From assembly GCA_048939465.1 (NCBI GenBank), contig JBHLPL010000005.1, positions 1 to 23,354 of the forward strand: 23,354 bases of DNA, read 5' to 3'. Under the pieces are notes generated by a model. That model was given only the letters and a program-made list of their open reading frames with translations. It was not told the origin of the DNA and did no database searches. Of this stretch, positions 1-9,876 are shown piece by piece. This DNA comes from Promethearchaeota archaeon. Its GTDB lineage: Archaea; Asgardarchaeota; Odinarchaeia; Odinarchaeales; JBHLKK01. The position numbers and the translations under genes were made by a program. Numbering within the stretch: the stretch's first letter is position 1; the number at the start of each line of letters is the position of its first letter.

Positions 1-995
1 CGGTATACCACGAGTTTTTTAAGAGAATGTCCAACCTCAGCAGCCTTTTCTGCTACTTCCAAAAATGTTTCACCAATATAGAAGGATTTTGAGTTCTTAA
101 TCCGTTCCCAATCTACTTCAGAAGGGGAGACAGAAAGTGCAGTATCGGACCCCTTCAACACGAAAATACGTTTGTTGCCCTTAGCAATTGTGATAAAAGT
201 CTGAATTGTTGTGCTTCTATCGTCTACAATGATGTGCTGTGTGTCGACACCGCTTCCCTGTAGGGCAGCCAGTAATCTTTTTCCCGCCGAATCTCCTCCA
301 ACCTTCCCTACCAAGCTCACACTAAGGCCTAACTTAGCGATTGCGTTGGCAACATTTGCAGCAGAACCCCCAGGCAAATGAAGCGGATCATCTATCAATA
401 CCGTTTCATCTGTTGCTGGAAAATCGTCTAGCATTCCTACAGTATCCAGCGCTATGGAGCCAAATACTATAACGTCTCGTTCGGCTACCAGCTTCTTGAG
501 AGATTGTTTTATGATATCTTCAAATTCATATGGACTGACTCCATAGGATTGACCTAGGGATACCACCTTCTCAGAATATATTTTGAACAGTTCTTTAATT
601 ATCTCCCTCATTTTTTCTGGCTCTTCACTTTTTCTAGAGAGAAGTAAGGTTAGATACTCTCCCATGACTGTTGGTTGATAATACTTTAACCAAACAGCTT
701 TTTCCTCCCGTTCAACCCTTTCCATTTCCTCACCGAGTACCTCAATCTTTACCATGTTTTGAAGATGAGTAATCACAGATTTGTTTGAATGTTCTTTCAG
801 TTCGGCTATAATTTCAGATTGAGATATTTTCTTTCTTTTTGAGAAGAGGCGTAGGATTTTTATTGGTATTTTTGAGCCAAAAGCAGAAATGAACAGAGTT
901 TCTTGTTCTTTTAGTTCTGTCGGCAGAAGCAGTAAATATGGCCAAAGCTTCATTTTGCGGGAACCCAAGGATATCCCTTCTTTAGCTATTTTCAT
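1..995 (-). CDS. N-terminal winged-helix-like domain fused to PfkB/ribokinase-family carbohydrate kinase (C-terminus runs off the left edge)
   Basis: Not in the ORF track; translated by hand from ATG at 995 and open to base 1. N-terminal part: MKIAKEG...FGSKIPIKILRLFSKRKKISQSEIIAELKEHSNKSVITHLQNMVKIEVL...VWLKYYQPT (HTH-like). From about aa 173: RDVIVFGSIALD...PGGSAANVANAIAKLGLSVSLVGKVGGDSAG, the PfkB signature-1 region. Confidence 0.88.
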   Translation of the reverse strand, partial: MKIAKEGISLGSRKMKLWPYLLLLPTELKEQETLFISAFGSKIPIKILRLFSKRKKISQSEIIAELKEHSNKSVITHLQNMVKIEVLGEEMERVEREEKAVWLKYYQPTVMGEYLTLLLSRKSEEPEKMREIIKELFKIYSEKVVSLGQSYGVSPYEFEDIIKQSLKKLVAERDVIVFGSIALDTVGMLDDFPATDETVLIDDPLHLPGGSAANVANAIAKLGLSVSLVGKVGGDSAGKRLLAALQGSGVDTQHIIVDDRSTTIQTFITIAKGNKRIFVLKGSDTALSVSPSEVDWERIKNSKSFYIGETFLEVAEKAAEVGHSLKKLVVY

Positions 996-999
996 GATA

Positions 1000-1066
1000 A
1001 ATAGGCTTATAAATTAGTTTTAAGCATTATGTTGAAGAGTACATAGCATAGTAAAAAATTACATTC
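1000..1066. promoter_or_regulatory. Divergent promoter region between the wHTH-PfkB gene and the ECF S-component, with a short inverted repeat
   Basis: AT-rich ~80-bp gap with TATA-like TTATAAA and TTTTAAG; inverted repeat TATGT-N8-ACATA at 1028-1045. Confidence 0.35.
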
Positions 1067-1067
1067 G

Positions 1068-1853
1068 GTGATGATGATGACAGAACTGAGCAGAGCATCG
1101 TTAGTGAAGGGTGCAAGAAGCGATGCCATGATAGCCATGTTTGCGGCCCTATATGTTGTGATCTCCATGCTTCCGGGGATACCAATCCCTGGCCTTCCGC
1201 AACTTACCATCGAGATTGAGGCTGCCTTTGCATCAGTCTTTGGAATAATTCTCGGACCCTTTCTTGGTTTTCAAACATCATTATTAGGTGCCATCATTGC
1301 TTGGCTCATAAATCCTTGGGCCCCTGCGGATCCTTTTGGTCTGCCGTTTTTGATTAATCCAGCTTTCAACGCTCTCGTAACTGGACTCATATATGAGGGG
1401 AAATGGAAACATGGCTTTGTCATATTTGCAGCGTCTATTGTTGTGTTCCCATTTATGCCACCGAGTCAGCCCATTACCGTGTACTATTACGTTGCATTGT
1501 TAGTGCTGTGGGACAAGATCCCCGCACTATTTCTCATAATCCCTACAATTTACCTTAACAAGGAAGATTTGAACTTAAAAAGTAAGACGGCTACGGCACT
1601 TTTCTTCATTCTAGCATTCATAGGAAACCAAGCAGACAATGCATTAGGTGCTGACATCTTTGCCACCCCTATGGTTTATGGAGGACTTTTCGGACTCACG
1701 ATAGACGTAACTCGACTGCTTTTTACTGTAAGTCCATTTTTCTACCCCATAATACGATTGATACAAGCAGGTATAGCCACGGCTATAGTTATTCCACTAA
1801 CTTTAGCGATGGTAAGGATTGGATGGTATACCACCAAGAAGACGCCAGCATAG
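1068..1853 (+). CDS. ECF transporter substrate-binding (S) component, specificity unknown; start probably ATG 1077
   Basis: Hydrophobic multi-TM protein with the S-component N-terminal pattern AMIAMFAALYVV...AFASVFGIILGPFLG...GAII. GGTGA RBS at 1067-1071. No T or A module genes in the window. Confidence 0.75.
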   Translation: MMMMTELSRASLVKGARSDAMIAMFAALYVVISMLPGIPIPGLPQLTIEIEAAFASVFGIILGPFLGFQTSLLGAIIAWLINPWAPADPFGLPFLINPAFNALVTGLIYEGKWKHGFVIFAASIVVFPFMPPSQPITVYYYVALLVLWDKIPALFLIIPTIYLNKEDLNLKSKTATALFFILAFIGNQADNALGADIFATPMVYGGLFGLTIDVTRLLFTVSPFFYPIIRLIQAGIATAIVIPLTLAMVRIGWYTTKKTPA

Positions 1854-1928
1854 CATTTTATTCATTCTTTTCTTGATAAGGCAGAAGCGTAGCAAAATGA
1901 AAGAACAACTGATAAGCGAGAAGCAAGT

Positions 1929-2053
1929 GTATTAAGGGCAAGAGAAGGTGATTTCATAGAAACTGTTGACAGCCTAATCTTTGTCAAGGGATCATGGTCC
2001 ACCATCCAGATTGTGTGACCGCATACTTACGATATTGCCCAAATCCCGAATAA
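1929..2053 (+). pseudogene. Truncated, frameshifted 5' remnant of a COG1665-like nucleotidyltransferase
   Basis: Reads VLRAREGDFIETVDSLIF-VKG / (frameshift) MVHHPDCVTAYLRYCPNPE*, matching LRAREGDFLETNEHLIFDVKGLIHPPDRLIAYLRYYPDSNG of the ORF at 2650. No in-frame ATG; stop at 2051-2053. Confidence 0.8.
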
Positions 2054-2088: not shown

Positions 2089-2412
2089 TCACTTACGTTC
2101 TGCCTCTGAAAGCTCCGTTGCTTTGCCCCGAGTACAATAATGATCCCAGCGGAGGCTCATTGTCCGCGAGATTGGGCACTGAAGGCACAAACAGTCTTTT
2201 TGCTCGCGGATTATCGAACTTTTTCCTAAGGCACAAAAGGCGAGAGTGGTTTCCCCCGTGCCCTTATAAGTTGGGCATTTACCACAATAATCCTCACAGA
2301 AACCGATCACATTTTCCACGGTTCTTGCTAGATCTGCCTCCGACATGTGTGCCATCATTTTCATTTTTTCTTCAAAAGGGGCAGCAGAGAAATTCTCTTC
2401 AGAATTTGCCAT
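2089..2412 (-). CDS. Small Cys-rich protein, DUF2769-like
   Basis: C-x3-C-x2-CPTY...FC-x2-GKS...CLC-x2-CP...YC-x2-G pattern, as recalled for DUF2769. Confidence 0.7.
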   Translation of the reverse strand: MANSEENFSAAPFEEKMKMMAHMSEADLARTVENVIGFCEDYCGKCPTYKGTGETTLAFCALGKSSIIREQKDCLCLQCPISRTMSLRWDHYCTRGKATELSEAERK

Positions 2413-2649: not shown

Positions 2650-3678
2650 TTGACAGGAAAGTTGAGAGCTAGAGAAGGAGATTTTCTAGAAACCAATGAA
2701 CATCTGATATTTGATGTGAAAGGTTTGATTCATCCTCCGGATCGCTTAATTGCTTATCTGCGATACTATCCGGATTCCAACGGGGACAGAATTAGAGGAA
2801 ATCAACGTTTCTCCAAAATCTATCCGATTTCCGAACGTTATGAATTCTTGAGGAAGTTTTTCCCTCAGTACCTATTTTTCGATTCGGTTAGTAAATCGAT
2901 GCTACAGGCAATTCCTTTGGATTTCATCAAAAAGCGATATGATCCAGCTCAGAAACTAAGAGAAATTGTAAGAAAGGGGGCACAAGATAGCGTTGAGAAG
3001 GATGTTATGGCTTTTGGAAACATCATCAAAGAAGCATCAGGGATCCCGTTTGAGAAGCTAGGAATTAGTGGCTCAGTCCTAGTTAGCTTACATAAGGATG
3101 AATCGGATATAGATTTGGTAGTCTATGGATCAAGAAATTGCCGGAAGGCCTATGAGGCACTTGAGCATTTGCTCGATGATTCCAAAAGCCTCGTAAGAAA
3201 GTATGATATGAAAGGGCTAAGGAATATGTTTGACTTTAGGGTAAAAAGTGCCCCCGTGAGTTTTAGAGATTTCGTGAAGTATGAAAAAAGAAAGAGGCTT
3301 CAAGGTTATTTCAAGACTCGGGATTTCTTTATTAGATTCGTTAAGGACTGGGACGAAATCTCAGAAGAATACGGAGATTTTTTATATGAACCCATCGGAC
3401 GGTGCAAAGTTCAGGGAATTGTCATTGACGAATCAGAAGCAATCTTTACGCCATGTAAATACATTTTGGGGAAATCAAAAGTGATGAGTGGAGTCAAAGT
3501 CAAGGCTATTCAAGAAATCGTTTCATATCGAGGAAGGTTCTGTGAGCAAGCTCGAGCAGGAGAGAGTATTTCTGCGAGTGGAAAAATCGAATTAGTAAAG
3601 AGTAAAGATGGAGAGAAATACTACAGGCTTTTATTGGGTGGAAATGATAGGGACTTCATGGTACTCCCGGAATCCTAG
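2650..3678 (+). CDS. Predicted nucleotidyltransferase (Pol-beta superfamily, COG1665/AF1967-like), copy A
   Basis: GISGSVLVSLHKDESDIDLVVYG carries the GS...DxD motif; N-terminal REGDF...HPPDR..AYLRY; C-terminal beta-rich SYRGRFCEQA...GKIE segment. Confidence 0.8.
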   Translation: MTGKLRAREGDFLETNEHLIFDVKGLIHPPDRLIAYLRYYPDSNGDRIRGNQRFSKIYPISERYEFLRKFFPQYLFFDSVSKSMLQAIPLDFIKKRYDPAQKLREIVRKGAQDSVEKDVMAFGNIIKEASGIPFEKLGISGSVLVSLHKDESDIDLVVYGSRNCRKAYEALEHLLDDSKSLVRKYDMKGLRNMFDFRVKSAPVSFRDFVKYEKRKRLQGYFKTRDFFIRFVKDWDEISEEYGDFLYEPIGRCKVQGIVIDESEAIFTPCKYILGKSKVMSGVKVKAIQEIVSYRGRFCEQARAGESISASGKIELVKSKDGEKYYRLLLGGNDRDFMVLPES

Positions 3679-3689
3679 GAGGCTATGAA

Positions 3690-4742
3690 ATGCGAAAGGC
3701 TAAGGACAGAGACTTTATTCAAACATCGGAGGACTTTCTTTTCTGCGTAGTTGGGTATCAGCATCCAAAAGATAGATACACTGCATATTTGAAATATGTA
3801 CCTTCTGCGTCTGGAAAATGGGGTGATCAACAACACTATCGACGAGTAATTCCGTATTACGCCGCAGCGTCTGTAATTGACACCTTTGATTTTCTTAGGA
3901 AGAACTACCCGAAATACCTCTTCCAATGCCCCGTAAGGAATATTGATTTCTCAGCAGTTCCTAGGGAGGATGTTAAAACATATTTCTATCCTGAGAAAAA
4001 ACTCGTAGAGTTGTGTAAAAAGTCGAATTTGGACAGTCTGGAAGAAAGAGTCATCGAACTGGTCGAGTCACTCGTGGATGAAAGCGGAATTCCTTGGGAT
4101 TCCATGGGAATAACTGGCTCAATCTTGATTGGTATTCACAATCCAGAATTCTCAGACATAGACCTTACCGTTTACGGTCGAGAAAATTCCTTGAGAGTCA
4201 AAAAAGCAGTTCAAGGACTAATAAGGACATCCAAAAGTGGTTTCAATGGGCTTGATGAAGCAGTCGCCTCTGACTGGGGTGATAGGAAAATAGGCGTGTT
4301 TCCCCTAGGTTCAAAACAGACGAAAGTCATTTTCAATCGTAAATGGAACTTTGGCGTCTTCAAAGGAACTAGATTTTCAATACACCCTACAAGAGCAGAC
4401 AAAGAGATTTCGGAGAAATATGGAGACAAGACATACACTGGAGATGACATTGTCAAAATTAGGGCGAAAGTCTCGGATGATATTGATAGTATTTTCAACC
4501 CCTGTTATTATAGATTAGCTGATGTTGAAGTTTTAGAAGGGCCGCAACTGAAGGATATTATCGAAGTAGTCTCGTATGAGGGGGTCTTTTGCGACATAGC
4601 CCATAAAGGAGAGATCATAATAGCAAAAGGGAAGCTAGAGAAGGTTTTGGATAAGCGTAATGGAGAAGTTTTTCATCGGATTTTGGTTGGTTCGCCAAAG
4701 GGGGCAGGAAAAGAGTTTATCTATCCGATCGTTCAGGACTAA
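3690..4742 (+). CDS. Predicted nucleotidyltransferase (COG1665-like), copy B, tandem paralog
   Basis: GITGSILIGIHNPEFSDIDLTVYG; KDRDF...HPKDRYTAYLKY; SYEGVFCDIA...GKLE. Lies 11 bp after copy A with a GGAGG RBS. Confidence 0.8.
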   Translation: MRKAKDRDFIQTSEDFLFCVVGYQHPKDRYTAYLKYVPSASGKWGDQQHYRRVIPYYAAASVIDTFDFLRKNYPKYLFQCPVRNIDFSAVPREDVKTYFYPEKKLVELCKKSNLDSLEERVIELVESLVDESGIPWDSMGITGSILIGIHNPEFSDIDLTVYGRENSLRVKKAVQGLIRTSKSGFNGLDEAVASDWGDRKIGVFPLGSKQTKVIFNRKWNFGVFKGTRFSIHPTRADKEISEKYGDKTYTGDDIVKIRAKVSDDIDSIFNPCYYRLADVEVLEGPQLKDIIEVVSYEGVFCDIAHKGEIIIAKGKLEKVLDKRNGEVFHRILVGSPKGAGKEFIYPIVQD

Positions 4743-8556: not shown

Positions 8557-9876
8557 TCAACACACACCTTCCTTGAGTTTGGTAGATTTCAAGTATTTGC
8601 CGAGTATCTTTAGGGAGCAATATGGACCGCACATAGTGCATGTCTCTTGTTCACCGATATTCTTTCTTTTATATATCTTACTGGCTTTTTCAGGGTCCAG
8701 CGCCAACTCTATGGTTTTCTCCAAATCAAGGTTTGACCGTGCTTTAGATATGTCGAGATCTAATTGCATTGGCATTTCTCCACGTTTCGCGATATCAACC
8801 GCATGGGCCGCTATTTTTGTCGCTATAACTCCTTCTTTCACATCTTCAATAGTTGGAAGACCCAGGTGTTCAGACGGAGTTACATAACACAGAAAATCGG
8901 CCCCGGCGAGTCCTGCCAAAGCGCCTCCTATTGCAGCAACTATATGATCGTAGCCAGGGGCAATATCAGTAACAAGCGGTCCCAACACATAAAAAGGTGC
9001 CCCGTCACATACATTTTTCTGTAGTTCCACATTTGCTTTAATTTGATTAAGAGGAATATGTCCTGGACCCTCGACAATGGTCTGAACATTTACGTCCCTT
9101 GAGCGTTTTACCAAATCCGAGATTGTTAATAATTCCTCAATTTGAGCCCAATCAGTCGCATCTTGTATGCATCCTGGACGCAGTCCATCGCCCAGGCTCA
9201 GTGTTAGATCGTATTCTTTTGCCAGCTCCAGTAGATAATCGAAATTAGAATAAAGCGGATTTTCCTTCTCATGATATAGTATCCAGGCGGCGTGGAACGT
9301 CCCTCCACGACTGACCATGTTAATTAACCTAGGGTGCATTACCAGACGTTCAATTATCCGCTTTATAACACCACAGTGCACAGTAACGAAGTCGATTCCA
9401 TCCTTTGCGTGTTTCTCTATGGCATTAAACATATCATCTTCGCTCATTTTAACAATAGCACCGTTCTTAGTTAACGCATCGATACCCGCTTGATATATAG
9501 GTACAGTACCCACCGGGACGTCTACCGCCTTCATTATCATCTTTCTCGTCTGATCAATATCACCACCGGTACTTAGATCCATTATAGTATCCGAGCCATA
9601 TTTCACAGCAACCTTGGCTTTTTCGACTTCTTCAGCCACATTGGCAACATCTTCAGATGTTCCTATGTTTGCATTTATCTTTGTGCTCAGTCCTTCACCG
9701 ATTCCAACGGGGCTCACATTTTCATGCATCAAATTGTGAACGATTACAGCCCTACCATTAGCTATCCTACGTCTAAGATGCTCAACGGGTATCTTTTCTT
9801 TTTCTGCGATCTCTTTCATTTCTTCGGTTATCACACCACGTTTTGCAAGCTCCATAACAGACGTCATACCGCACAC
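8557..9876 (-). CDS. thiC: Phosphomethylpyrimidine synthase ThiC family radical-SAM enzyme (start probably ATG 9867)
   Basis: KINANIGTS, DTIMDLSTGG, TVHCGV, VSRGG, LSLGDGLRPG, EGPGH, GYDHI, EHLGLP and C-terminal CTMCGPYC (CX2CX4C). The BzaA/B/F paralogs are not excluded. Confidence 0.88.
   Translation of the reverse strand: MCGMTSVMELAKRGVITEEMKEIAEKEKIPVEHLRRRIANGRAVIVHNLMHENVSPVGIGEGLSTKINANIGTSEDVANVAEEVEKAKVAVKYGSDTIMDLSTGGDIDQTRKMIMKAVDVPVGTVPIYQAGIDALTKNGAIVKMSEDDMFNAIEKHAKDGIDFVTVHCGVIKRIIERLVMHPRLINMVSRGGTFHAAWILYHEKENPLYSNFDYLLELAKEYDLTLSLGDGLRPGCIQDATDWAQIEELLTISDLVKRSRDVNVQTIVEGPGHIPLNQIKANVELQKNVCDGAPFYVLGPLVTDIAPGYDHIVAAIGGALAGLAGADFLCYVTPSEHLGLPTIEDVKEGVIATKIAAHAVDIAKRGEMPMQLDLDISKARSNLDLEKTIELALDPEKASKIYKRKNIGEQETCTMCGPYCSLKILGKYLKSTKLKEGVC

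Follow-up and report, generated by a model that had tools for sequence, protein, structure and literature searches.

Introduction

In ThiR, a fusion of an enzyme with a regulator, the enzyme-like domain serves as the sensor. NadR and BirA are likewise enzyme-regulator fusions, and RbkR is an archaeal riboflavin kinase and regulator with a regulon that changes from biosynthesis genes in producers to an ECF transporter in auxotrophs (PMC5397151). Here, we describe an archaeal locus of comparable design, in which a winged helix-turn-helix (wHTH) domain is fused to a domain of the ribokinase (PfkB) family and the fusion gene is transcribed divergently from the gene of an ECF S-component. The locus lies at the start of the window (i.e. 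the whole stretch of DNA that was analysed, 23,354 nucleotides). Our overall reading, to which we assign a probability of about 0.65, is that the fusion protein is a repressor of methanopterin supply with a sensor PfkB domain, and that the S-component imports methanopterin or a precursor bearing its side chain. To our knowledge, neither a regulator of methanopterin biosynthesis nor a methanopterin transporter is known; a literature search (with most subscription papers outside its scope) returned neither of them, no functional study of the regulator family, and nothing relevant on this family, on COG1665 or on ECF transport in connection with methanopterin.

Results

A regulator gene split over two contigs

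On the minus strand of the window an open frame extends from 995 to 3 (331 aa, ORF scan) and runs off the contig end, as the first base of the window is also the first base of contig C116 (genome of 1.96 Mb, a MAG estimated to be 91% complete). Residues 332-476 are encoded by C31:3-440 (the two contigs overlap by 4 nt), where the 3' part of the gene is followed by mptD (PF04038), mtd and ftr. A full-length homologue (P0001) is 92% identical to the regulator. Close homologues bear Odinarchaeia or Hodarchaeota labels, from which we place the genome among the Asgard archaea. The gene is missing from the ORF track and had been proposed, as a wHTH-PfkB fusion, in a preliminary description of this DNA; the open frame and its match to PF00294 establish that it is real, and the GAGD motif sought beyond the window is present on C31 (as DPTGAGD). 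Judging by its homologues, most of which begin at that point, the protein more probably starts at ATG 953 than at 995 (Table 1).

The regulator family is compact, with 86 representatives (E < 1e-10). Strong matches were found in 64 of 301 Asgard genomes (a phylum sample that includes families named Freyarchaeota, Borrarchaeum and Thorarchaeota) and in 55 of the 141 genomes of a class taken to be Bathyarchaeia, while some Desulfurococcaceae also carry members. One member has been automatically annotated as a ribokinase/MarR fusion.

The N-terminal region (~170 aa), in which an HTH-like segment had been noticed, folds as a winged helix: in the AlphaFold model (pLDDT 86) three helices that form an HTH core are followed by a beta-hairpin wing and two more helices. 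Its top structural matches are nearly all winged-helix proteins, mostly regulators of the HxlR, MarR and PadR types, with Z-scores of 10-11 (VIA-align: 11.2 to 1yyv and 10.3 to the DNA-bound PadR structure 5x11). The two-helix linker is a possible dimerisation or effector site. The homodimer prediction for the regulator scored 0.30 against a mark of 0.42, which we take as evidence neither for nor against a dimer.

Table 1. Features of the locus in window coordinates
Feature	Position	Strand	Basis and remarks
wHTH-PfkB regulator gene, 5' two thirds	3..995	-	Pfam; homologue P0001; probable start ATG 953; last 145 codons at C31:3-440
PfkB/ribokinase-fold domain, N-terminal half	3..476	-	Pfam, structure, alignment; ribose-pocket Asp, Gly-Gly, Asn and Glu kept
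Two-helix linker	480..626	-	AlphaFold model, family comparison; kept in stand-alone forms
Winged helix-turn-helix domain, HxlR/MarR/PadR-like fold, predicted DNA-binding	630..932	-	AlphaFold model, VIA-align
TATA-like element in the promoter of the S-component, assigned by its position	1007..1014	+	Sequence; anchored promoter comparison
Operator box 1, putative (core of palindrome 1028-1045)	1030..1043		Conservation, matrix scan
Operator box 2, putative, 20 bp after box 1	1050..1063		Conservation, matrix scan
ECF S-component of a family without a name; predicted substrate, methanopterin or a precursor	1077..1853	+	Pfam, curated profiles, comparison
Two paralogous nucleotidyltransferase-like genes	2650..4742 (2650-3678, 3690-4742)	+	Pfam; neighbourhood survey

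The S-component and its pairing with the regulator

The divergent gene encodes a protein of 258 aa that exceeds the Pfam cut-offs of PF07155 (34.4 bits, cut-off 26.7) and PF12822 (32.1, cut-off 30.7) and stays below the curated ones of FolT (TIGR04518, 33.6 vs 60) and RibU (32.2 vs 99). It is therefore an ECF S-component, and by the curated cut-offs neither FolT nor RibU; the FolT family is, below its cut-off, the best curated match for 9 of 21 S members. The head-to-head arrangement at ~80 bp given in the preliminary description is confirmed (81 bp, counted from the first ATG of the regulator), and the S-component is an orphan, as it was called there, in its immediate surroundings but not in the genome, which encodes an EcfA-A'-T operon elsewhere (C55:2044-4479). 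S homologues were also found within S-A-T operons.

The presumed pairing of the two genes proved to be conserved in the neighbourhood survey, as the S-component is divergent from the regulator in 35 of 46 homologous loci. The 11 others comprise two cut by a contig end, one with unrelated upstream sequence and eight of Freyarchaeia type with the order mptD-regulator-mptE. The pairing holds down to about 30% regulator identity, at which the neighbour is a complete S-A-T operon. Recurrent neighbours are mptD, mtd, ftr, fwd, mer-like, cofE-like and citG-like genes, and a nucleotidyltransferase pair.

Several individual loci deserve mention. The window's S-component is 58% identical to the S of another Asgard family (G029) and only about 30% identical to the S that its closest relatives carry at this locus (L004 and L121 were compared). 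By these comparisons the S gene looks to have been swapped under an unchanged promoter, because it diverges in spite of 92% identity between the regulators and a retained operator. In a genome of the same genus (L048, G044:C180:1-459) the region upstream of the regulator bears no relation to S, contains no operator and may be an insertion. The S homologues of L105 (G111:C18) and L106 (G062:C34) are located within or next to mch-fwd-ftr clusters and have neither regulator nor operator. Thorarchaeia-type genomes commonly encode a second family of S paralogues, weaker in score (70-105 bits) and possibly serving another C1 cofactor, and in Odinarchaeum-like loci (L052-L055) two Mer-like F420-dependent genes stand behind S in place of the nucleotidyltransferase pair.

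A conserved operator and its regulon

The palindrome TATGT-N8-ACATA reported between the two genes lies at 1028-1045, and its core is one of two TGTA-N6-TACA boxes, the second of which had been overlooked. Taken singly, the palindrome is at chance level in the window (34 one-mismatch matches vs 34.2 expected); its significance derives from the second copy 20 bp away (1050-1063), from its position and from its conservation. The TGTA-N6-TACA motif, which was picked by eye, is common to the intergenic regions of the regulator loci, where it occurs in tandem with a period of 20-21 bp and fixed beside the S start. As it was picked in these very regions, the independent tests that follow carry more weight. 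A matrix trained without the window's genus and then run genome-wide ranks the pair at 1030/1050 first in the 1.96-Mb genome (22.3 bits, the next scoring 14.6). Regarding further regulon members, no second convincing box pair was found in this genome, the intergenic single boxes being without a partner; the best single box (C46:4938, near folP) was rejected for lying inside an ORF.

In relatives, the box pair (16-34 bits) stands just upstream of the mptG operon in all ten of the Freyarchaeia-type genomes with the regulator and no S that were examined. The operon so preceded reads mptG-DUF1464-dmrX-DHPS-like-mptA-NT-NT (NT, nucleotidyltransferase-like; one contig stops after dmrX). The sequence ahead of mptG has no such pair (at most 3.3 bits) in 12 genomes that lack the regulator, a control weakened by the fact that mptG may not lead its operon in some of them. 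Upstream of S genes, the pair is absent in 13 of 13 cases from 12 Thorarchaeia-type genomes without a detected regulator, and in the Bathyarchaeia-class sample it is present in 12 of the 21 regulator-positive vs none of the nine regulator-negative genomes. In that class it also precedes mptA-mptE-mptD-dmrX operons, DUF447-mptG operons and citG-like genes. Hence, the motif expected upstream of orthologous S-components is a conserved palindromic operator that is present or absent together with the regulator gene, and we infer that the regulator binds it. The regulon is very probably that of methanopterin. The boxes lie between the TATA-like element and the start codon, which makes repression, rather than activation, quite probable (a sigma-70 promoter scan of the window is not meaningful for an archaeal host).

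Two other ligands were considered and rejected: thiamine, since thiC (window 8557-9876) has neither a box pair nor a conserved link to the locus, and riboflavin, since the RibU score is far below its cut-off.

The PfkB domain

PF00294 matches residues 174-314 of the regulator (E 4e-24), and the domain scores below every curated equivalog cut-off. Its fold is that of ribokinase (TM 0.83-0.85 over the target, vs E. coli RbsK 1rkd and the M. jannaschii nucleoside kinase 2c4e). With bacterial HTH-PfkB fusions, of which E. coli YeiI is an example, the match (PRK09954) is confined to the PfkB part. The GxGD anion hole with the catalytic Asp is present in the part encoded on C31, and the NxxE position reads NSQG (i.e. 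Glu is replaced by Gly). The NxxE motif binds magnesium (PMC5931981, PMC3118340), and adenosine kinase requires the Glu of this motif (PMC3118340). This Glu is missing from all 41 family members with an intact GxGD, and was found in 12 of 13 control PfkB proteins. Within a non-redundant set of 74 members, 35 have kept the ribose pocket as well as GxGD, and 33 have lost GxGD; catalytic residues are thus not conserved across the regulator orthologues.

GxGD is gone in one Freyarchaeia family and in Thorarchaeia, where the domain has decayed, and the domain is absent altogether from Odinarchaeum-like genomes and most Bathyarchaeia. The resulting stand-alone wHTH forms (~160 aa) are nested among the fused ones in the tree and retain perfect operators, and a separate PfkB orthologue was found in none of five genomes that encode them. 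Considering that the domain is lost or decayed and no replacement was found, DNA binding appears to be the constant function and kinase activity not to be required for the uptake system; the perfect operators of the stand-alone forms indicate, moreover, that the PfkB domain is not the sole possible sensor. Most likely, in our view, it is a sensor that binds a ligand and has little kinase activity, if any, and on balance we judge that it is not an active kinase of the pathway. From the idea of a bifunctional kinase-regulator that was put forward in the preliminary description, the regulator is therefore retained and the kinase is doubtful; similarly, of the suggestion that the domain 'senses or phosphorylates' the imported substrate, sensing is plausible and phosphorylation is the weaker half.

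The same regulon could also be served by an active salvage kinase, a trigger enzyme like RbkR, that converts RFA into RFAP or phosphorylates the terminal ribose of dephospho-methanopterin. The ribokinase fold, the members in which the catalytic Asp of GxGD and the ribose-binding Asp, Asn and Glu are kept, and the nature of RFA (ribofuranosyl-aminobenzene), a C-nucleoside that would suit a nucleoside-kinase pocket, speak for it, as does a stand-alone PfkB of the same subfamily on a metagenome contig (L269:5787-6683), which ends a thiamine ECF cluster and faces a nucleotidyltransferase pair. We nevertheless consider such a kinase unlikely, given the loss of the NxxE Glu from all 41 members with an intact GxGD, the many S-bearing genomes in which the domain is lost or decayed (with no replacement found in the five examined), the 28 Asgard genomes that have S and in which no regulator was found, the retention of the domain in producers without S, and the lack from this genome of the DHPS-like gene, the candidate user of RFAP. 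The stand-alone PfkB of L269 is likewise devoid of the NxxE Glu.

That the domain is a decaying passenger, with the wHTH and linker helices sensing the effector or the repressor being constitutive, would agree with the nested stand-alone forms that keep the operator and with the frequent loss of GxGD, but is improbable, since members from Asgard, Bathyarchaeia and Desulfurococcaceae at 30-45% identity conserve both the anion hole and the ribose pocket, which implies selection.

S and mptG in H4MPT-using archaea

Methanopterin synthesis has RFAP synthase (MptG) as its first committed step (PMC6787355). In the Asgard survey, where Mch served as the marker of H4MPT use, 203 genomes were positive, of which 76 have S only, 106 mptG only, one both and 20 neither; S occurs in merely three of the 98 Mch-negative genomes. 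We stress that genome counts overstate the exclusion, as families share ancestry and kinship inflates any P value. At the family level, S was found in five lineages and mptG in 13, with no family holding both apart from one genome. In this sole Asgard genome with S and mptG (G145; L068, L118) the regulator is truncated (390 aa), the operator is weaker and mptG is divergent and without an operator, so that synthesis was possibly regained. The exclusion is not universal: Bathyarchaeia-class S homologues frequently adjoin mptG and share its regulation, and one Thermoproteota-like genome has both genes.

In the genome under study no mptG, DUF1464 or TIGR00284 DHPS-like gene was found (the absence of any single gene from a 91% complete MAG being weak evidence by itself), while mch, mtd, ftr, a dmrX homologue, a citG-like gene, mptA, mptD, mptE and folP are present. 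The canonical folP is located beside gcvT, gcvH, a cofE-like gene and mptE (C46:5314-10831). This genome thus probably makes folate while being without methanopterin side-chain synthesis. Its pterin genes do not fix the substrate of S, because they may serve folate via folP; the loss of early side-chain genes and the retention of later ones would point to the import of methanopterin itself or of a pterin-linked intermediate. One Thorarchaeia genome retains the DHPS-like gene and could use RFA alone.

That S carries a side-chain-bearing compound is, in our assessment, likely. Were the regulator correctly read and S an importer of pABA, a pterin or folate instead, one would understand its resemblance to FolT (best match, below cut-off), the folP, mptA, mptD and mptE kept in this genome, and the Bathyarchaeia-class S genes that adjoin mptG, whose substrate is pABA. 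This is hard to reconcile, however, with the near confinement of Asgard S to Mch-positive and mptG-negative genomes, in which pABA cannot enter methanopterin, with a near-complete S-positive genome (G041) that has no MptE and no clear FolP, and with the S homologues inside mch-fwd-ftr clusters, so that we hold import of these compounds to be rather improbable.

The nucleotidyltransferase-like pair

In producers, tandem nucleotidyltransferase-like genes stand last in the mptG operon; in importers, such genes flank S. They probably belong to the same pathway as S and mptG and are candidates for a late, unassigned methanopterin step; the pair was not found in the complete Odinarchaeum-like genome G001. 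In the window, a frameshifted remnant of a nucleotidyltransferase 5' end (about 1900-2050, plus strand) and a DUF2769 gene (2089-2412, minus strand) lie between S and the intact pair, and in a genome of the same genus the pair is directly behind S.

Discussion

The system is real and conserved. It consists of a new family of regulators, with an operator that is defined and a regulon of methanopterin genes, and of a candidate methanopterin importer. In the mechanism that we propose, the repressor, presumably as dimers, would bind the two TGTA-N6-TACA boxes 20 bp apart and, as these separate the TATA box of its target from the start codon, would block initiation. The S-component would be its only clear target in this genome and, energised by the shared EcfAA'T module, would import methanopterin or a precursor already bearing the aminophenyl-ribose/ribitol side chain. 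Such import would bypass RFAP synthase, absent here while the H4MPT-dependent enzymes are kept, and the same boxes would control the mptG operon in cofactor-making relatives. The PfkB domain may sense a pathway compound that bears ribose-5-phosphate. Both effector and transported compound are putative.

Archaea such as this one probably scavenge methanopterin from their neighbours. We lean slightly towards the wider proposal of a transcription factor dedicated to methanopterin biosynthesis and salvage, with a ribokinase-derived pseudo-enzyme as sensor, an S-component that founds a methanopterin-importer family, and Asgard archaea that are auxotrophs. If true, the whole lineages of Thorarchaeia, Odinarchaeia and Borrarchaeum would be such auxotrophs and depend on methanogens or further producers for methanopterin or its side chain. 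Methanopterin cross-feeding would become testable, as 76 of the 203 H4MPT-using Asgard genomes would have an importer instead of RFAP synthase, and methanopterin would be a concrete medium supplement for cultivating the importer-bearing lineages. The operator would delimit the pathway and thereby nominate DUF1464, DUF447, the CitG-like protein and the nucleotidyltransferase pair for unassigned steps of methanopterin synthesis. The family would further document how a ribokinase turns into a sensor, with members in which the domain is intact, decayed or deleted.

The described system that resembles this one most in its manner of working is RbkR, of which the regulator is not a member. Both join a wHTH to a domain of kinase fold, have palindromic operators, have lost the domain in some lineages, and govern biosynthesis genes in producers and a transporter in auxotrophs (the ECF RibU in the case of RbkR; PMC5397151). 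They differ in fold (PfkB here, a CTP-dependent riboflavin kinase in RbkR), in what is regulated (methanopterin genes and a non-RibU S-component here, riboflavin there) and in the catalytic motif, which is lost here. The operators here lie downstream of the TATA box and suggest repression, whereas RbkR is a proposed activator (PMC5397151). With ThiR, NadR and BirA the regulator shares the placing of a cofactor regulon under a DNA-binding domain joined to an enzyme-derived one, while enzyme folds, cofactors and operators are different and no sequence match was seen. Among ribokinase/PfkB proteins (RbsK 1rkd, 2c4e) it is at home by its fold, ribose-pocket residues and DxTGAGD anion hole, and set apart by NSQG in place of NxxE and by the added N-terminal wHTH. 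The S-component, finally, resembles the group II ECF proteins FolT and RibU in its Pfam matches (PF07155 and PF12822), its encoding apart from the energising module and the pterin-like ligand to be expected, and is distinguished from them by scores below both curated cut-offs and by its ties to methanopterin genes.
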